A stretch of DNA of 13,755 bases from an uncultured Mycoplasma sp. Lineage in GTDB: Bacteria; Bacillota_I; Bacilli_A; RF39; UBA660. A program made the position numbers and the translations under genes. Under the pieces are notes generated by a model that saw only the letters and a list, made by a program, of their open reading frames with translations, made no database searches and was not told the origin of the DNA. The stretch lies in assembly GCA_964430785.1 (NCBI GenBank), contig CAYSFJ010000014.1:1-13755 (forward strand), in the 5' to 3' direction. Of the stretch, positions 6,365-13,755 are shown in pieces (within the stretch, counting starts at the first letter, position 1; each line of letters begins with the position of its first letter).

Positions 6365-7561
6365 ATGAAAATATTAGCAAATAGTATTAGACCTAAAACA
6401 CTTGATGATGTTCTTGGTCAGCAACATTTAATTGGAAAAGGTAAAGTACTTAGAAATTTAATAGAAAATAAAAAAATGTTCTCATTAATATTATATGGAA
6501 CACCTGGAATTGGCAAAACAACTCTTGCAAAAGTAATTGCAAATGAAATGAATATGCCATATGAATTTTTGAATGCCACTCAAAATAATAAAGATGATTT
6601 TTTAAGAGCAATAAATGATGCAAGACTTTCAGGAGAAAAAATACTTATTATAGATGAGATACATCGTATGAATAAAGATAAACAAGATATACTTCTTCCA
6701 TATCTTGAAAATGGAACAATTATTTTAATAGGTCTTACTACCTCAAATCCATTTATAAAAGTAAATCCTGCAATAAGAAGTAGATGTACAATTTTAGAAC
6801 TAACTCCTCTTTCTAAGGAAAATATAAAAAAGGGATTAGAAAATGCATTAAAATATCTTCCTGATATTGATATAACTAGTGATGCTCTTACATATATTGC
6901 GGGTGCAAGTGGTGGAGATGTTAGATGTGCTTATAATATACTTGAAATATCTTACTATGCTTTTAAAAAAGATATTACTGTAGATAAGATTAAGGAAATA
7001 ATACCAAAGGCAAATGTTTTTATTGATGAAACAGATGATGGACATTATGATGCTTTAAGTGGCTTACAAAAAAGTATACGAGGAAGTGATATTGATGCTT
7101 CCCTTCACTACCTTGCAAGGCTACTTTATGCTGGAGATTTAGATTCAATTGAACGTAGGCTTTCTGTTATTGCTTATGAAGATATTGGTCTTGCAAATCC
7201 TGGTATTGGGCCTAGACTAGATAGTGCAATAAATGCAGCAGAAAGAGTTGGTTTTCCTGAATGCAATATTATTTTGGGAGCCATTGTTACTGAAATGGCT
7301 CTGTCACCAAAAAGTAATAGTACTACAATTGCAATAGATAAAGCAATTAATGATTTAAATGAAAAAGGTGCCACTAAAATACCAGATAATATTAGAACAA
7401 ATTCTAGTACATATTTGTATCCACATAATTATAAAAATCATTATGTGAAACAAAATTATATGCCAAAAGAATATATTGGAAGTAAATATTACTTACCTCA
7501 AGATAATAATATAGAAAATGGACTTAATAAAGTTTATAAAGAAAGGACAGATAAAAAATGA
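6365..7561 (+). CDS. rarA: Replication-associated recombination protein A (AAA+ ATPase, MgsA/RarA)
   Basis: 398 aa. N-terminal RPKTLDDVLGQQHLIG, Walker A GTPGIGKTTLA, Walker B ILIIDEIHR, and C-terminal HYDALSGLQKSIRGSD...ALHYLARLL...GD...IERRL...AYEDIGLANP typical of RarA. Confidence 0.9.
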   Translation: MKILANSIRPKTLDDVLGQQHLIGKGKVLRNLIENKKMFSLILYGTPGIGKTTLAKVIANEMNMPYEFLNATQNNKDDFLRAINDARLSGEKILIIDEIHRMNKDKQDILLPYLENGTIILIGLTTSNPFIKVNPAIRSRCTILELTPLSKENIKKGLENALKYLPDIDITSDALTYIAGASGGDVRCAYNILEISYYAFKKDITVDKIKEIIPKANVFIDETDDGHYDALSGLQKSIRGSDIDASLHYLARLLYAGDLDSIERRLSVIAYEDIGLANPGIGPRLDSAINAAERVGFPECNIILGAIVTEMALSPKSNSTTIAIDKAINDLNEKGATKIPDNIRTNSSTYLYPHNYKNHYVKQNYMPKEYIGSKYYLPQDNNIENGLNKVYKERTDKK

Positions 7562-8535
7562 AAATAGCAATGCTTGGAACAGGTGTTTATGGGCTTGCAA
7601 TAGCAAGTAAACTCGCTGAAAATGGAAATCAAGTTATAATGTGGACAGAAAATAAAGATAAAGAAAATGAATATCAAACAACACATAATTTAAAAAGTAT
7701 AAATGAAAGTTATAATCTTTCTGATAATATTGAAGTTACCTCAAATGTGCAAGATGCAATGAATGGTGCAAAAATAGTATTTTTTACTTGTGCATCAAAA
7801 TATACAAATGAAATTGCAAGTATGATTCTTCCCTACTTTGAAAAAAATATGATCATATGTATTGCAAGTAAAGGTATTGAAGAAAAAACTTGTCATTTAC
7901 TTTCTAATGTAATTAAATTTATTTTAAATGCAAAAAATATAACAGTTATATCAGGGCCAACTTTTGCAGTTGATATGCTTGCTGGAGAACCAGTTGCATT
8001 AGCAATCGCAGGAACTAATAGAAAAAGTCAAAATATAGTAGTTAAAGCTTTATCTTGTGATACAGTCAAACTTAGAATTTCAAAAGATATAATTGGAGTC
8101 CAAATATGTGGTGCTGTTAAAAATGTAATTGCTATTGCCTCAGGTATATTGGGAGGTTTAGGGTATTCAGAAAGTACAAGAGCATTTTTAATAAATGAAT
8201 CACTTCATGATATCAAAGATTTAATTTCTTTTTTAGGAGGTAAACCAAAAACTATACTTTCTTTTGCTGGAGTTGGAGATTTATTAATGACATGTATGAG
8301 TACAAAAAGTCGTAACTATTCATTTGGATATGTTATAGGTTCAACTAAAGATAAAAATAAAATTGATAAATTTTTAAAAGAACACACCGTTGAGGGATAT
8401 AATACTTTGAAAACTGTTATGCTCCTTTTAAAAAAGAAAAATATAAATATCGAACTTATATCACTTATCAATGATATAGTTGATTATAAAGAAAGTCCAG
8501 AAAAATTAAGTGAATTTCTTATAAACAAAAAATAA
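7558..8535 (+). CDS. gpsA: NAD(P)H-dependent glycerol-3-phosphate dehydrogenase
   Basis: 325 aa. N-terminal Rossmann motif MKIAMLGTGVYGLA, plus GPTFAVDMLAGEPVALAIAG and CGAVKNVIAIASGILGGLGY typical of GpsA. Its start overlaps the rarA stop (ATGA). Confidence 0.9.
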   Translation: MKIAMLGTGVYGLAIASKLAENGNQVIMWTENKDKENEYQTTHNLKSINESYNLSDNIEVTSNVQDAMNGAKIVFFTCASKYTNEIASMILPYFEKNMIICIASKGIEEKTCHLLSNVIKFILNAKNITVISGPTFAVDMLAGEPVALAIAGTNRKSQNIVVKALSCDTVKLRISKDIIGVQICGAVKNVIAIASGILGGLGYSESTRAFLINESLHDIKDLISFLGGKPKTILSFAGVGDLLMTCMSTKSRNYSFGYVIGSTKDKNKIDKFLKEHTVEGYNTLKTVMLLLKKKNINIELISLINDIVDYKESPEKLSEFLINKK

Positions 8536-8541
8536 AACTAG
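8525..8541. repeat. Left copy of the 17-nt direct repeat ACAAAAAATAAAACTAG (covers the last gpsA codons and the left arm of the terminator)
   Basis: Exact 17/17 match to 9084..9100, checked base by base. The sequence is low complexity (A-rich), so chance or convergent terminator sequence cannot be excluded. Confidence 0.5.
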
Positions 8542-8557
8542 CCTATCTAGTTTTTTT
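8534..8557. terminator. Bidirectional Rho-independent terminator between convergent gpsA and the toxN-like gene
   Basis: AAAACTAG (8534..8541), loop CCTAT, CTAGTTTT (8547..8554), then a T-run to 8557. The A-run on the left makes it usable from the minus strand too. Confidence 0.65.
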
Positions 8558-8642
8558 ATTATATTCTTTGCACTTTTTTCTAATAGTTTAAAATCACAAC
8601 ATCTACTTGCAATATGTGAATTTAAAGTTTTATTAATAAATT

Positions 8643-9050
8643 TTAAATATAGTTTTTTGATTTATTATAAAGAATATCACTGTTACGGTTAAGCCAATAA
8701 ATTTGTTCTTTTAATAACTTCACATATTTTTCTTTACTTTTTATAAAACAATCTTTATCTAAATTTAATTTAATAATATTTTTATTTGTTACAGGTATCA
8801 TACTATTAAAATTTACAGCTCCTAAATCACCATTTGAAATTTTCAAAAAGTCTAATGTTGTTCTCATAGTTTTATGTTTCGCTTTAGGACTTGATAATGG
8901 AACAAAATATTTACAATTGTTTATTTCAAATAAAACGCCTACAAAAGGTCGCAACTCTTTCTTATCATAGTTATAAGGAACTTTCAGGTCAAACTTACGT
9001 AAGTAATTACAATAATCTGAGTCAATTTTAACTAATACTAATTTCTTCAT
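8643..9050 (-). CDS. ToxN/AbiQ-family endoribonuclease (type III toxin-antitoxin toxin / abortive-infection protein), short form
   Basis: 135 aa. It aligns by eye with ToxN/AbiQ: YCNYLRKFDLKVP (compare YIEYLKEFDDKVP), PFVGVLFEINNCKYFVPLSSPKAKH (compare AFIGIVLEIQGHKYLAPLTSPKKWH), LGAVNFNSMIPV (compare LGLINLKFMIPI) and YVKLLKEQIYWLNRNSDIL. A strong ribosome-binding site GAGGTGG lies 5 nt upstream of the ATG. It is roughly 35 aa shorter than the ~170-aa ToxN/AbiQ proteins as I recall them. Confidence 0.75.
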   Translation of the reverse strand: MKKLVLVKIDSDYCNYLRKFDLKVPYNYDKKELRPFVGVLFEINNCKYFVPLSSPKAKHKTMRTTLDFLKISNGDLGAVNFNSMIPVTNKNIIKLNLDKDCFIKSKEKYVKLLKEQIYWLNRNSDILYNKSKNYI

Positions 9051-9083
9051 TTAAACCACCTCAAAAACCATTATACAATAATT

Positions 9084-9100
9084 ACAAAAAATAAAACTAG
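9084..9100. repeat. Right copy of the 17-nt direct repeat ACAAAAAATAAAACTAG
   Basis: Exact match to 8525..8541. It forms the left arm and A-tract of the terminator hairpin at 9094..9117. Confidence 0.5.
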
Positions 9101-9124
9101 AGTAAGCTCTCTAGTTTCTTTTTT
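9086..9124. terminator. Strong bidirectional terminator hairpin immediately upstream of the toxN-like gene
   Basis: AAACTAGAG (9094..9102), loop TAAGCT, CTCTAGTTT (9109..9117). It is followed by CTTTTTT on the plus strand and by TTTTATTTTTT on the minus strand. On the minus strand it lies between the upstream hairpin region and the toxN ribosome-binding site, the position the terminator occupies in type III TA loci. Confidence 0.6.
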
Positions 9125-9136
9125 AAGTTCCTCTTA

Positions 9137-9160
9137 TAGTGGGAATCACTAGTTTTTTTT
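9137..9160. terminator. Second hairpin plus T8 tract (terminator-like on the plus strand; hairpin preceded by A8 on the minus strand)
   Basis: TAGTG (9137..9141), loop GGAAT, CACTA (9147..9151), then G and T8 (9153..9160). The stem is only 5 bp. Confidence 0.35.
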
Positions 9161-9221
9161 AATAACCATCTACATAGCACTCTATGTAAACAGTTAAATG
9201 CATAAATTAATATGCGTAATT

Positions 9222-9230
9222 AATATACCA
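9222..9230 (-). promoter_or_regulatory. Candidate extended -10 promoter (TGgTATATT) upstream of the hairpin region
   Basis: The minus strand reads TG (9230..9229), g, TATATT (9227..9222). It overlaps a 13-nt-period direct repeat TATTAATT(n)YGCA x2 (about 9225..9200). No good -35 element is present. Confidence 0.3.
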
Positions 9231-9259
9231 CAAAATTATTAAAATTTACATATTTTTTA

Positions 9260-11125
9260 TTAATTTTTATATTCATTTTTAATTTTATTATAAACCTTCT
9301 CTTCATCTAAATTATTTAATTTTATAAGTTCCTCTCTTGAAGCTGTAAACATAAACTTATTTGGGATATTATAAATATAAAAATCATTCTTGCTGTTTAT
9401 TTTACTAGCAAAGGAAAGTATTACACTATCTAAACTACACCCTTCCATACTTTCTTCATAAATAAATACTTTTTTATAATATTGGAGTATTTTAGTAAGC
9501 ATTTTTTCATCAATTGGTTTTAAAAATCTAGCATTAATAATTGTAAGATTTATATTATCTTTAGATAACCATTCACAAATAGTTTTTGTTTTGCCTACAA
9601 AATCACCATAAGTAATAATTACGCCATCTTCTCCAGATGCAAGTACACTCCAAGAACCTAAAATAATATTTTCTTTCTTTTGAAAATCATATTTTAAATT
9701 TATTTTGGGATATCTTATAGCAAAAGGTTTATTACATTTTAATGCAAGTTCTAATAGATTATCAGCTTCTTTAGGACTCGATGGCATAGAAATAGCCATA
9801 TTAGGAATAGGAAGTAGCATTGGCACGTCAAATAATCCTTGATGCGTTTCTCCATCAGATGATACAAATCCCGCTCTATCAATACATAAAATAACATGTT
9901 CATTCATTCTAGCAATATCATGAACTATTTCATCATAACCACGCTGAAGAAAACTTGAATATATAAAACATATTGGTTTTTTACCATTTTCCGCAAGGGA
10001 AGAAGCTAGAACTAAAGCGTGCTCTTCGTTAATGCCAACATCGATAAATTGATTAGGTAATTTTTCTTTAATAATGCTAAGCTTACAACCTTTCTCCATC
10101 GCAGGCGTAATAACAATTATATCTTTATCTTTTTTAGCATAATTTAAAACATAAGAACTCATTATTTCACTATATGATGGTAAATTTGATATTTCTTTAG
10201 GTTTACCATCGCTTATATTAAAAGGGCCAACTCCATGAAAAGATCCATTTTCATCATTTTCAGCAGGTTCATAGCCAAATCCTTTTTTAGTTATTACATG
10301 AAGTAAAACAGGTTTATTAATATTTTTAACCATTTGTAAATACTTAATCATTTCATTAAAGTCTTCACCATCTATCGGGCCAAAATATTCAAGACCTAAA
10401 GATGTAAATAAACTTCCCTTTTTTACATATAACATTTTAAAGTTATCTTTAATACTATTTAAGGCATTAGCACACACTTTACCAAACTTTGTTTTATTTA
10501 AAAAACTTTTAGTGTTTTTTTTAACTTTATTATACTTTTTACCCGCTCTTACGGAATCTAAAAAATTATGAACAGCACCAACATTTTTAGAAATGCTCAT
10601 TTCATTATCATTTAAAATAATAATTAGTCTTGTATTTAAACTTCCTATGTGATTAAGTGCCTCAAAGGAAAGACCATTAGAAATAGAACCATCTCCGATA
10701 ACACATACAACATTATAATTTTTCTTATCTAAATCTCTTGCTAAAGCAAAACCAAGACCTGCAGATAAAGATGTTGAACTATGTCCTGCTTCATAAACAT
10801 CATATTTACTTTCACTTTTCTTTTGAAAACCATCTAGCCCATTATACTTTCTTAAATTTTTGAAATCTTTTGCTCTACCAGTTAATATTTTATATGGATA
10901 AGTTTGATGCCCAACATCAAAAATTATTTTATCTTTATTTACATCAAATACTTTAAGAATTGCAATTGTTAAATCTGTTATACCCAAATTTGAGGATAAA
11001 TGTCCTCCTGTATTAGAAACATTTTGTAAAATAAATTCTCTAATATCCGCACCTAAAACAGCAAGTTCATCATTATTTAATTTCTTTAAAAAATCAGGAT
11101 TTTTTATATTTTCAATCTTATCCAT
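9260..11125 (-). CDS. dxs: 1-deoxy-D-xylulose-5-phosphate synthase
   Basis: 621 aa. N-terminal GGHLSSNLGITDLTIAL..FDVGHQTYPYKILTGR, TPP-binding IGDGSISNGLSFEALN, and central and C-terminal transketolase-like regions (FIDVGINEEHAL, DGETHQG). Full-length Dxs architecture. Confidence 0.92.
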   Translation of the reverse strand: MDKIENIKNPDFLKKLNNDELAVLGADIREFILQNVSNTGGHLSSNLGITDLTIAILKVFDVNKDKIIFDVGHQTYPYKILTGRAKDFKNLRKYNGLDGFQKKSESKYDVYEAGHSSTSLSAGLGFALARDLDKKNYNVVCVIGDGSISNGLSFEALNHIGSLNTRLIIILNDNEMSISKNVGAVHNFLDSVRAGKKYNKVKKNTKSFLNKTKFGKVCANALNSIKDNFKMLYVKKGSLFTSLGLEYFGPIDGEDFNEMIKYLQMVKNINKPVLLHVITKKGFGYEPAENDENGSFHGVGPFNISDGKPKEISNLPSYSEIMSSYVLNYAKKDKDIIVITPAMEKGCKLSIIKEKLPNQFIDVGINEEHALVLASSLAENGKKPICFIYSSFLQRGYDEIVHDIARMNEHVILCIDRAGFVSSDGETHQGLFDVPMLLPIPNMAISMPSSPKEADNLLELALKCNKPFAIRYPKINLKYDFQKKENIILGSWSVLASGEDGVIITYGDFVGKTKTICEWLSKDNINLTIINARFLKPIDEKMLTKILQYYKKVFIYEESMEGCSLDSVILSFASKINSKNDFYIYNIPNKFMFTASREELIKLNNLDEEKVYNKIKNEYKN

Positions 11126-11789: not shown

Positions 11790-11981
11790 TACTCCTATTA
11801 AAAAACCCAGTAAGATTAGTCTATGCTAGATAAAATCCCGCGCTCTCCGCAGGTGGGCATCACATAAGTTATTTTAGGATTCTTATGTACTTAATGAATA
11901 AGCATTCTACACCATAACCTAATTAGATTCCCTTATTTCTATCTTTAGTCGGTTTTATACGCTATAAACTATCAACTAGGT
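11790..11981 (-). promoter_or_regulatory. Candidate structured 5' leader (unclassified cis-regulatory RNA) of tcdA-dxs
   Basis: On the minus strand an 8-bp helix pairs 11981..11974 (ACCTAGTT) with 11924..11917 (AATTAGGT, one G-U pair). A 7-bp hairpin spans 11888..11862. A GC-rich 6-bp hairpin CCTGCG-GAGAG-CGCGGG at 11853..11837 is followed by ATTTTAT. This is the only GC-rich patch in about 340 nt of AT-rich spacer. Confidence 0.35.
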
Positions 11982-11987
11982 ATCTTT

Positions 11988-12126: not shown

Positions 12127-12762
12127 TTAATATCTTACTCCTCCCCATTCAACAGCAACAAAACCTATTCTTTCAAATGTAGGAAGTTCTTGCTCTTTAA
12201 TTTTAACTTTTTTATTTACTTTTTTTACATGCATAGTTACTCTTAATAAACTATCAGGTACAGGCTCTATAATTAATTTATTATATTTTTCTATACTTTC
12301 AGTTAATTCAAAATATACTAAACTTTTTCCATTATTTTCAAGTATTGGAAGCCAGTACATTATAAATTCATTTTTTTCTCTATCATTTAAACCAATTAGA
12401 GAAAGTTTTTCCTCAAGAAAAGAAATAGCATCAACTTTTTCTACATAAAAGCCTTCGTCAAAAGATGATTTAACATTATTTTTCTCTTCCCAATATAATG
12501 CATAATAATATTTTCCGTTTTCATCATATAAATTACCAAGTGTATCTGCATTTACACTCCATCCATTATTATATTTAGGATATGTTGTTGCAAGATATTC
12601 TGGATGCTCAAACTTAACAGTTATATTTTCATTTTTAATTGGATATAAATATAAAACTGGTTTAGCTTTCATTGGAACCAATGAGGAAAATATAATACAT
12701 AATATAAAGAATAAAATAAGTGCTAAAATAATTTTACCTATCATATAAATAATTTTTTTCAC
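12127..12762 (-). CDS. Membrane-anchored protein of unknown function, paralogue B (PVLYLYP...VEWGG domain)
   Basis: ORF 12127..12780. I prefer the GTG at 12762 (VKKIIYMIGKIILALILFFILCIIF, read as MKK plus a hydrophobic anchor), which has GGGGA 5 nt upstream and lies 1 nt after the stop of the preceding gene. About 175 C-terminal residues are identical to 13005..13667 apart from I/T and K/E near the repeat boundary and R/T at the penultimate residue (VRY vs VTY). I do not recall a named family. Confidence 0.65.
   Translation of the reverse strand: MKKIIYMIGKIILALILFFILCIIFSSLVPMKAKPVLYLYPIKNENITVKFEHPEYLATTYPKYNNGWSVNADTLGNLYDENGKYYYALYWEEKNNVKSSFDEGFYVEKVDAISFLEEKLSLIGLNDREKNEFIMYWLPILENNGKSLVYFELTESIEKYNKLIIEPVPDSLLRVTMHVKKVNKKVKIKEQELPTFERIGFVAVEWGGVRY
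12137..12663. repeat. 527-bp direct repeat, copy 1 (2 mismatches to copy 2)
   Basis: Base-by-base comparison with 13015..13541 at a constant offset of 878 nt. The only differences I found are at 12636 (t vs c) and 12638 (a vs g). Confidence 0.9.
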
Positions 12763-12763
12763 T

Positions 12764-13003
12764 TTAATCCCCACATTCACACTTTATTGTATCTGTACTT
12801 TCTTTCATTTCATCATCATAATAATGACATGTTTGCATGCCACCACTACACTCAGTACAATTTACTGAACTTTGGCAATATAATCTACCACCACTGTCAT
12901 GATGAAAAAATATAATAAAAATTATATAAGCAAAAGTAATAACATTTAAAATAGCCAAAATTACAAACGAAACTTTCCAATAATTTTTCCTTTCTTTTTT
13001 CAT
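12764..13003 (-). CDS. Small single-pass membrane protein with a Cys-rich extracytoplasmic tail
   Basis: I prefer the ATG at 13003 (MKKERKNYWK, then TM VSFVILAILNVITFAYIIFIIFF, then the tail with C-x5-C-x2-C-x6-C-x15-C-x-C). This start lies 1 nt after the stop of the upstream gene. The track start at 13039 would overlap that gene by 35 nt. Confidence 0.5.
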   Translation of the reverse strand: MKKERKNYWKVSFVILAILNVITFAYIIFIIFFHHDSGGRLYCQSSVNCTECSGGMQTCHYYDDEMKESTDTIKCECGD

Positions 13004-13004
13004 T

Positions 13005-13667
13005 TTAGTAAGTAACTCCTCCCCATTCAACAGCAACAAAACCTATTCTTTCAAATGTAGGAAGTTCTTGCTCTTTAATTTTAACTTTTTTATTTACTTT
13101 TTTTACATGCATAGTTACTCTTAATAAACTATCAGGTACAGGCTCTATAATTAATTTATTATATTTTTCTATACTTTCAGTTAATTCAAAATATACTAAA
13201 CTTTTTCCATTATTTTCAAGTATTGGAAGCCAGTACATTATAAATTCATTTTTTTCTCTATCATTTAAACCAATTAGAGAAAGTTTTTCCTCAAGAAAAG
13301 AAATAGCATCAACTTTTTCTACATAAAAGCCTTCGTCAAAAGATGATTTAACATTATTTTTCTCTTCCCAATATAATGCATAATAATATTTTCCGTTTTC
13401 ATCATATAAATTACCAAGTGTATCTGCATTTACACTCCATCCATTATTATATTTAGGATATGTTGTTGCAAGATATTCTGGATGCTCAAACTTAACAGTT
13501 ATATTTTCATTTTCAGTTGGATATAAATATAAAACTGGTTTTCTGATTACACTTGTTAAAGAAGGATACAAAAAATAAATAAATAGTATTTGTAATATTA
13601 ATATCAAAAGCAAAGTTATAGTTAAACTTTTATAATTATTTTCTTCATTTGAATTATTTTTATTCAT
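13005..13667 (-). CDS. Membrane-anchored protein of unknown function, paralogue A (PVLYLYP...VEWGG domain)
   Basis: ORF 13005..13691. I prefer the ATG at 13667 (MNKNNSNEENNYKSLTITLLLILILQILFIYF), which has GGAG 5 nt upstream and lies 1 nt after an upstream in-frame stop. The C-terminal domain is encoded by the 527-bp repeat. Confidence 0.65.
   Translation of the reverse strand: MNKNNSNEENNYKSLTITLLLILILQILFIYFLYPSLTSVIRKPVLYLYPTENENITVKFEHPEYLATTYPKYNNGWSVNADTLGNLYDENGKYYYALYWEEKNNVKSSFDEGFYVEKVDAISFLEEKLSLIGLNDREKNEFIMYWLPILENNGKSLVYFELTESIEKYNKLIIEPVPDSLLRVTMHVKKVNKKVKIKEQELPTFERIGFVAVEWGGVTY
13015..13541. repeat. 527-bp direct repeat, copy 2
   Basis: See copy 1. Identity stops abruptly at both ends: the last three codons differ (VRY vs VTY) and the N-terminal anchors are unrelated. 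Confidence 0.9.
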
Positions 13668-13668
13668 G

Positions 13669-13755
13669 TTATCTCCAACAAGATGAAACATTACAGTTTG
13701 ATGAATAAGGCATTGGGTTAGGCATTTCCATCTTAACTATCATAGGTATTTTAAA
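13669..13755 (-). CDS. 3' end of a further upstream ORF (C-terminus ...PMPYSSNCNVSSCWR), gene start outside the window
   Basis: The minus-strand frame is open from the window edge to the TAA at 13671..13669 (28 codons). The stop is followed by 1 nt and then the ATG of paralogue A, the same junction geometry as the other two junctions in this operon. Too short to be certain it is coding. Confidence 0.3.
   Translation of the reverse strand, partial: FKIPMIVKMEMPNPMPYSSNCNVSSCWR

Follow-up and report, generated by a model that had tools for sequence, protein, structure and literature searches.

The minus-strand open reading frame (ORF) at positions 8643..9050 of contig CAYSFJ010000014.1, assembled from an uncultured Mycoplasma sp. 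(GenBank GCA_964430785.1), raises the question of whether a toxin gene of the ToxN/AbiQ family can sit alone between the core genes gpsA and dxs, as was originally predicted from the sequence, or whether it belongs to a fuller type III toxin-antitoxin locus (toxIN), in which the toxin gene (toxN) is accompanied by an RNA antitoxin encoded as tandem repeats (toxI). The whole 13,755-nt stretch of DNA that was analysed is referred to here as the window, and its host group consists of uncultured human-gut Bacilli (‘Mycoplasma sp. CAG:472’, UBA6448 and Hadza metagenome-assembled genomes; 24.8% GC). Our findings indicate that the locus is very probably a chromosomal type III toxIN of the known ToxN/AbiQ kind, degenerate and in early decay, in which a dead toxin is left with a residual single-repeat RNA and a terminator. 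The family and the catalytic motif named in the original prediction stand, while the picture of a solitary toxin lacking array, terminator and partner gives way to that of a frameshifted pseudogene of a 169-aa protein.

The ORF runs from ATG to TAA and encodes 135 aa within the 724-nt interval between the stop codons of gpsA (8535) and dxs (9260), on the strand opposite to gpsA, exactly as had been described. Its product clearly belongs to the ToxN/AbiQ family. It matches the Pfam profile ToxN_toxin (PF13958; E = 9.9e-38, 130.2 bits against a cut-off of 25) and the PADLOC model AbiQ (E = 4.1e-30), and the only solved relatives retrieved by sequence search of the PDB are the ToxN proteins of Bacillus thuringiensis (4ATO; the best match, E = 5.7e-16), Escherichia coli (7D8O) and Pectobacterium atrosepticum (2XD0), together with AbiQ of Lactococcus lactis (4GLK). 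An AlphaFold2 model of a full-length relative matches these four structures end to end, with template modelling (TM) scores of 0.68–0.77, and the next match has an E-value of ~1. Profile searches and a structural comparison had been proposed as checks on the family assignment, and both came out strongly in its favour. The VPLSSPK segment of the ORF aligns with APLTSPK of ToxN, which agrees with the earlier equation of PLSSPK with the catalytic PLTSPK region, and R34 and S53-S54-P55-K56 fall on the catalytic positions of ToxN. The catalytic residues of ToxN are Lys33/Arg, Thr52, Ser53 and Lys55, the last three of which are carried by the APLTSPK motif (PMC8860590). Homologues are already labelled ‘type III toxin-antitoxin system ToxN/AbiQ family toxin’ by NCBI. 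Membership of the TenpIN or CptIN families was considered and rejected, since the NCBIfam TenpIN model scored 15.2 bits against a cut-off of 90 and no CptN match was found in Pfam, PADLOC or NCBIfam. A phage-borne origin was likewise rejected, as IMG/VR holds distant relatives only (at most 38% identity). No other window ORF tested matched a PADLOC model, in keeping with the earlier view that this is the sole defence-like element in the window.

The 135-aa product is a truncated form of the natural protein. Nearly all of the best 120 homologues listed are 166–175 aa long, short forms of ~130–147 aa accounting for six of them, and the PF13958 match spans profile positions 3–128 of 159 only. The nearest intact homologue (P0001; 169 aa and 95% identical to the window product) occupies the same dxs-gpsA site on a 100-kb metagenome contig (L001), where a thiF-like gene, dxs, toxN, gpsA (convergent) and mgsA follow one another in the order seen in the window. 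Alignment of the window with L001 revealed three differences, namely two 1-nt losses in A7 runs and a 68-nt loss upstream of toxN. The premature end of the 135-aa product results from a 1-nt deletion in an A7 run (frameshift 1; Table 1). When one A is added at each of the two tracts, a 169-aa protein results, the last 36 residues of which are identical to those of P0001, and the ancestral gene ends 7 nt from the gpsA stop codon.

Because of the −1 frameshift at codon 133, the product lacks its last 34 residues, which form conserved helices of the ToxN fold; complete toxins measure ~165–195 aa and possess these C-terminal helices. The lost segment includes positions with conservation of 90% or more across the subfamily (Y135, Y138, L143, R150, C151, C152, F154, L156, L157, E158, K160, C161 and Y164). 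In the AlphaFold2 model of the full-length relative it forms helices 124–139, 145–148 and 154–167, whose predicted local distance difference test (pLDDT) values of 92–95 are the highest in the protein. Judging from what has been lost, the window toxin is most likely inactive, and rescue of the full protein by transcriptional slippage or ribosomal frameshifting appears unlikely because the tract has no more than six As and the frame would have to be corrected twice. A limited literature search yielded no usable account of C-terminal truncation of ToxN. Frameshift 1 is common to all five other loci read with the window allele. Frameshift 2 varies from one near-identical contig to another, with A6 in L192, L195 and the window and A7 in L191, L193 and L194, and is therefore the later of the two, having arisen in sequence that was no longer translated.

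The gene had also been described as standing alone, with neither repeat array nor terminator and with no obvious neutralizing partner; in fact a terminator and, as comparison with L001 shows, a remnant of the antitoxin array lie directly upstream of it. The dxs-toxN spacer of L001 measures 274 nt and contains a tandem array with a period of 34 nt and 3.3 copies (Tandem Repeats Finder (TRF) score 170). The 68 nt absent from the window are exactly two of these 34-nt repeats, and the deletion maps to the junction at ~9115–9125. What remains inside 9051..9259 is a contracted toxI of 1.3 copies, one full repeat and 0.3 of another, followed by the terminator stem-loop at 9118..9093. The full repeat corresponds to repeat 1 of the L001 array, is the only repeat-core match in the window and retains all stem and pseudoknot pairs of the family. 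It carries an allele-specific G-to-A change at the G after the A-run, a position occupied by G in the consensus of all other arrays. This remnant is recognizable only once the window is compared with L001: neither TRF applied to 9051..9259 nor a repeat finder confined to the window showed an array, and no ToxI-like family came up when the entire window was scanned against Rfam 15 (E ≤ 10).

The regulatory parts around the remnant are still legible. A terminator scan gave two sites against 0.1 expected, the palindromic hairpin between toxI and toxN also appears in the RNA fold, the site reads as a terminator on the plus strand as well, and the hairpin (AACTAGAGAGCxxACTCTAGTT) is conserved in other lineages. 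A promoter-like site precedes the repeats, and the arrays of L001, L044, L050, L125, L127 and L197-L203 are preceded by an extended −10 (TGnTAxxxT) at a comparable distance. A simple promoter scan missed the window site because its −35 is weak, and it presumably serves as the toxIN promoter. Both leader hairpins are found in the minimum free energy and centroid structures (RNA fold of 9222..9051 on the minus strand, z = −4.48 against shuffles). Hairpins directly before the array are seen in other lineages too, with different sequences, and might stabilize the 5′ end. The order of repeat, terminator and toxN follows the layout that Blower et al. (2012; PMC3401426) described and that is canonical for type III systems.

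Both frameshifts fall in homopolymers and the 68-nt loss removes two identical tandem repeats, the kinds of sequence in which miscounted bases and a collapsed array could mask an intact 3.3-repeat toxIN; one related locus (L004) indeed has an assembly gap inside its array. We give such a sequencing or assembly artefact practically no credence, and the window allele is not a sequencing error. The exact 135-aa sequence (P0121) is encoded on seven contigs in the protein collection, and five loci that are 98–99.97% identical to the window, assembled independently by two pipelines from at least five samples, all carry frameshift 1 and the 209-nt dxs-toxN spacer. The 4.7 kb of neighbouring genes contain no indels between the window and L001, and 20 other homopolymer runs of at least 7 nt in window ORFs are all in frame. 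Moreover, an array that had simply collapsed should retain 2.3 copies rather than 1.3, and the intact 114-nt array is shorter than the reads that we assume for such assemblies.

The repeat recurs well beyond this site. In three further toxN lineages, located elsewhere on the chromosome (rpmB-dnaE, tex), the repeats are likewise 34 nt long and number 3.3, and the same AACTAGAGAGC..ACTCTAGTT terminator comes after them; arrays of 34–36-nt units are present in most of ~70 further metagenome loci with enough upstream sequence. Copy numbers in related loci are most commonly 3.2–3.3, then 2.2, and rarely 4.1 or 1.2. In units extracted with a sequence pattern of our own, stem pair 11–23 is G-C in 51 and A-U in 19 of 70 distinct units, with none unpaired, and pair 13–21 is paired in 69 of the 70; the stem covariation score exceeds those of 500 out of 500 shuffles and of all slid controls. 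The loop xxTCC pairs with a downstream GGA in 115 of 115 cases, the third pair being T-A in 102, C-G in 10 (compensatory changes) and T-G in 3. On this covariation, the toxI repeat is a real structured RNA family, predicted to fold as a hairpin-type pseudoknot as in ToxI. A separate observation concerns L117 (1150-1500), where an intact toxN homologue (~55% identity with P0001) lacks both array and terminator, the upstream region having been replaced by coding-like sequence to ~35 nt before the start; its sister loci (e.g., L127) carry 1.2, 2.2 or 3.2 repeats. L117 could be a genuinely antitoxin-less toxN or the outcome of a rearrangement.

Several observations weigh against a fully dead locus. 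All known catalytic and RNA-holding residues (R34, equivalent to Lys33, S53, S54, K56, Y109 and Q116) lie upstream of the frameshift and are retained, so that the 135-aa product may keep some residual nuclease activity. The promoter, Shine-Dalgarno sequence, terminator and pairing of the remaining repeat are all intact, one complete repeat is still set between two A-rich boundaries, and the allele persists in at least five samples. Intact toxN also occurs behind only one full repeat in L125 and L127, and 1.3 copies alone are therefore no proof of a dead antitoxin. These features could together describe a functional minimal toxIN, with the 135-aa protein an active short ToxN held by a single toxI repeat. 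We consider this distinctly unlikely, as the 34 lost residues are among the most conserved of the subfamily, the corresponding helices, confidently modelled, have aligned counterparts among the C-terminal helices of each of the four solved ToxN/AbiQ structures, and forms of ~130–147 aa are as scarce as noted above. The other two lineages truncated at the same A tract carry further destructive lesions, an 8-aa deletion of the invariant M84/P86/V87 in one (P0055/56, L044) and a stop at R34 in the other (L201-203, L196). At least 1.8 repeats are required for AbiQ and 2.5 for P. atrosepticum ToxI (reviewed in PMC5086642).

The substitutions of the window allele likewise speak against a minimal but working toxIN. 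Apart from the G-to-A change in the repeat, they include A50V, N83S and E106K at near-invariant positions of the subfamily, N83 being aligned to Phe88 of ToxN, as well as T103I. The ratio of non-synonymous to synonymous substitution rates (dN/dS) of toxN relative to L001 is 0.26 (0.45 upstream of the frameshift), against 0.07–0.10 for gpsA, dxs and mgsA, although it is based on only six non-synonymous and five synonymous changes. The near-invariant changes and the raised dN/dS can be read as signs of relaxed constraint.

The repeated loss of bases from the tract at codons 131-133 suggests another possibility, in which slipped-strand changes at A7 reversibly toggle an abortive-infection toxin. 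The tract has been shortened independently in three lineages (the window allele; P0055/56, represented by L044; and P0126/P0131, represented by L201-203 and L196), a single additional A would restore the whole ORF in L191, L193 and L194, and the C-terminal codons are still identical to those of the intact relative at the protein level. However, A7 is short beside the tracts of characterised phase-variable loci. At 25% GC, A-runs are everywhere, and the 20 runs of at least 7 nt in other ORFs have stayed in frame; the window itself would need two corrections, and the other lineages have gained irreversible lesions. Such a phase-variable switch is thus very improbable, and decay of a once intact toxIN remains our preferred reading.

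The states of the gpsA-dxs site in relatives (Table 1) form a series that runs from intact toxIN, through dead or missing toxN with remaining repeats, to an empty site or replacement by other genes, and the interval is a variable insertion site. The dead toxN of L201-203 and L196 arose independently of that of the window; one gene caller read its R34 TGA codon as Trp (‘KELWPF’ in P0131), presumably via genetic code 4. The rpmB-dnaE lineage (P0055/56, L044) supplies a third independent frameshift at the A tract. The route to loss of the entire gene can be suggested from a 17-nt direct repeat, ACAAAAAATAAAACTAG, of which the window contains two exact copies against 0.01 expected by chance. These flank toxN, and toxN-less relatives keep one copy that joins the gpsA stop to the toxI terminator, a pattern consistent with toxN having been deleted when the copies recombined. 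Disrupted toxN was found in ~8 of 80 metagenome loci, and toxN loss is therefore common. Across the ~80 loci there was no significant link between toxin disruption and array contraction (a rough estimate; one repeat unit or fewer in ~2 of 8 disrupted and ~4 of ~64 intact loci). As the association is not significant and dead toxN with full 3.3-copy arrays exists (L044, L081, L085 and L201-203), we do not claim co-loss of toxin and repeats.

Table 1. Coordinates of the features of the toxIN locus in the window and of the states of the gpsA-dxs site in related loci (UTR, untranslated region; PLD, phospholipase D).
Feature	Location	Strand	Details
toxN pseudogene	8543..9050	−	Ancestral 169 codons plus stop TAG at 8545..8543; present ORF 9050..8643
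Frameshift 1	8653..8658	−	A6, A7 in intact alleles; codons Ser-Lys-Lys 131-133; gives ...SKNYI, then stop 8645..8643
Frameshift 2	8574..8579	−	A7 to A6, 3′ of the premature stop
Promoter-like site of toxIN operon	9222..9250	−	−35 TGTAAA 9250..9245; 17-nt spacer; extended −10 TG 9230..9229; −10 TATATT 9227..9222; read from sequence
Leader	9163..9215	−	Two hairpins (9215..9200, 9196..9163) between promoter-like site and repeats
Sole full toxI repeat	9125..9160	−	36 nt, AAAAAAAACTAGTGATTCCCACTATAAGAGGAACTT; stem TAGTG/CACTA; loop ATTCC pairs with downstream GGAA (predicted pseudoknot)
Partial (0.3) toxI repeat	9114..9124	−	AAAAAAGAAAC; 3′ A-rich boundary, runs into terminator; from alignment with L001; direct-repeat family D6, spacing 38
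Intrinsic terminator between toxI and toxN	9083..9118	−	Stem-loop 9118..9093, 10 pairs, loop of 6, then ATTTTTTGTA
Shine-Dalgarno sequence	9056..9062	−	GAGGTGG, 5 nt upstream of toxN ATG; read from sequence
17-nt direct repeat, copy 1	8525..8541	+	ACAAAAAATAAAACTAG; last gpsA codons, stop, start of gpsA-side hairpin (8534..8554)
17-nt direct repeat, copy 2	9084..9100	+	ACAAAAAATAAAACTAG; toxN 5′ UTR and terminator
Low-divergence tract relative to L001	8425..9295		Last ~110 nt of gpsA, toxN, toxI, promoter, last ~35 nt of dxs
gpsA	7558..8535	+	Convergent with dxs, opposite strand to toxN
dxs	9260..11125	−	Same strand as toxN
Intact toxN, 3.3 repeats	L001, L198, L199		gpsA-dxs site
Intact toxN, 2.3 repeats	L197		gpsA-dxs site
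Second independent dead toxN	L201-L203 1393-1910; L196 67-474		R34 to TGA stop plus frameshift in the same A tract; full 3.3-repeat array
Promoter, 1.3 repeats and terminator	L003 5960-6180; L005 5960-6215		No toxN
At least 2.3 repeats	L004 5960-6240		No toxN; N gap inside array
Promoter and terminator only	L042 90-300		No toxN
506-aa PLD-family (cardiolipin-synthase-like) gene	L006/L012 6006-7526		Replaces toxIN
605-aa ORF, no Pfam match	L009 5998-7815		Replaces toxIN
14-22-nt gap	L007, L008		gpsA-dxs site

The cassette has a history of its own. Mismatches between the window and L001 amount to 3–6 per 200 nt across ~8425-9295, against 20–35 in mgsA/gpsA and 12–16 in dxs, so that divergence is ~1.8% inside this tract and 7–12% outside, with sharp edges within the 3′ ends of gpsA and dxs. 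The synonymous divergence (dS) is 0.056 for toxN and 0.34–0.57 for the flanking genes. The two cassettes therefore share an ancestor that is much more recent than that of the genes around them, most likely because lineages have exchanged the cassette through homologous recombination. The toxin gene of the window lineage was inactivated at a still later time.

The A7 tract hit in three lineages and the array steps of 3.3, 2.3, 1.3 and 0.3 copies make it conceivable that the locus is a tunable, partly reversible abortive-infection toxin switch; separately, the toxI arrays that persist without toxN in several species (L003, L004 and L005) could guard against toxIN elements entering the cell (anti-addiction) or have been co-opted as a shared gpsA/dxs terminator, and 8425-9295 would then record recent interspecies sweeps of the cassette by homologous recombination. 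Taken jointly, these propositions seem unlikely to us, and we return to a decaying toxIN.

By analogy with characterised ToxIN and AbiQ, the intact form represented by L001 would be driven by one promoter from which the 3.3 tandem 34-nt toxI repeats are transcribed, and the terminator would restrict read-through into toxN to a fraction of the transcripts. ToxN, an endoribonuclease, would cut the precursor at the A-rich repeat boundaries to release single pseudoknot RNAs, which would bind and block ToxN in a closed complex. If the supply of labile toxI failed, for example upon phage infection, free ToxN could cleave cellular and phage RNA. In the window allele, two repeats have been lost (1.3 left), toxN is frameshifted and the toxin is most likely dead. 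What remains, a promoter, a single repeat and a terminator, may still give rise to a transcript and probably helps to terminate the convergent genes in both directions.

Three further features of the window and of L001 lie outside the toxIN locus. Upstream of the thiF-like gene, L001 contains a stretch (908-2864) with no counterpart in the window, comprising a DUF4160/DUF2442 pair and a gene for a DUF87 ATPase. Just downstream of the thiF-like gene, the window carries a full-length 6S/SsrS RNA gene (11800-11985, minus strand; RF00013, 53.9 bits against a gathering score of 46.4), which is the only Rfam 15 match above gathering score in the window. Two tandem paralogous ORFs on the minus strand (12127-12780 and 13005-13691; 217 and 228 aa, with 94% identity across 189 aa) have a 91-aa ORF between them and look like a recent local duplication; neither has a Pfam or PADLOC match.

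Among known systems, the closest in unit length and copy number are ToxI of B. thuringiensis, with 2.9 copies of 34 nt, and antiQ of L. lactis, with 2.8 copies of 35 nt (PMC5086642). The B. thuringiensis ToxIN (plasmid pAW63; 4ATO) likewise has a 34-nt repeat with A-rich boundaries and the order repeats, terminator and toxN, and its toxin shares the fold (TM 0.68) at ~32% identity. In contrast, the locus described here is chromosomal, between core genes of a gut Bacilli lineage known from metagenome-assembled genomes; its intact relatives carry 3.3 repeats rather than 2.9, and in the window copy the repeats are down to 1.3 and the toxin is frameshifted. AbiQ of L. lactis (4GLK), whose PADLOC model matches the window product, has the same fold (TM 0.72–0.74) and a distantly related sequence (E = 9e-10). 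When the AbiQ toxin is active, clones that hold fewer than 1.8 repeats are not viable (PMC5086642), whereas in the window 1.3 repeats coexist with a broken one. The ToxIN systems of P. atrosepticum and E. coli (2XD0, 7D8O) show the same fold (TM 0.71–0.77), an alignable catalytic Thr/Ser-Ser-x-Lys motif and an antitoxin that is a pseudoknot processed by the toxin, as would be the case here. They differ in being Gram-negative and plasmid-borne, with 5.5 repeats of 36 nt and 28–30% identity.

Presence or absence of the locus, recurrent inactivation of the toxin and remnants of the antitoxin represent the usual decay route of chromosomal toxin-antitoxin loci. The gpsA-dxs site resembles such degenerate loci in all of these respects, with presence or absence at a fixed core-gene site, recurrent toxin inactivation and antitoxin remnants that are kept. 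It differs in what is left of the antitoxin, an array of RNA repeats that can be counted in the sequence itself (3.3, 2.3, 1.3 and 0.3 copies). A limited literature search turned up no account of such a copy-number series in a type III system. Like the recombination tract, this decay series is an observation of natural history and does not reveal a new mechanism.

For annotation, our findings indicate that ‘toxN pseudogene with residual toxI repeat’ is the fitting label for this ORF, in place of orphan toxin or active defence gene. More broadly, gut Bacilli of the CAG:472 group provide a natural series, from intact to absent, of one type III toxin-antitoxin locus at a fixed site. Within this series toxin inactivation is common, through homopolymer frameshifts, a nonsense codon and clean deletion between 17-nt repeats, as is the stepwise loss of repeats. 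Such a series could aid the study of how RNA-antitoxin systems are gained and lost.

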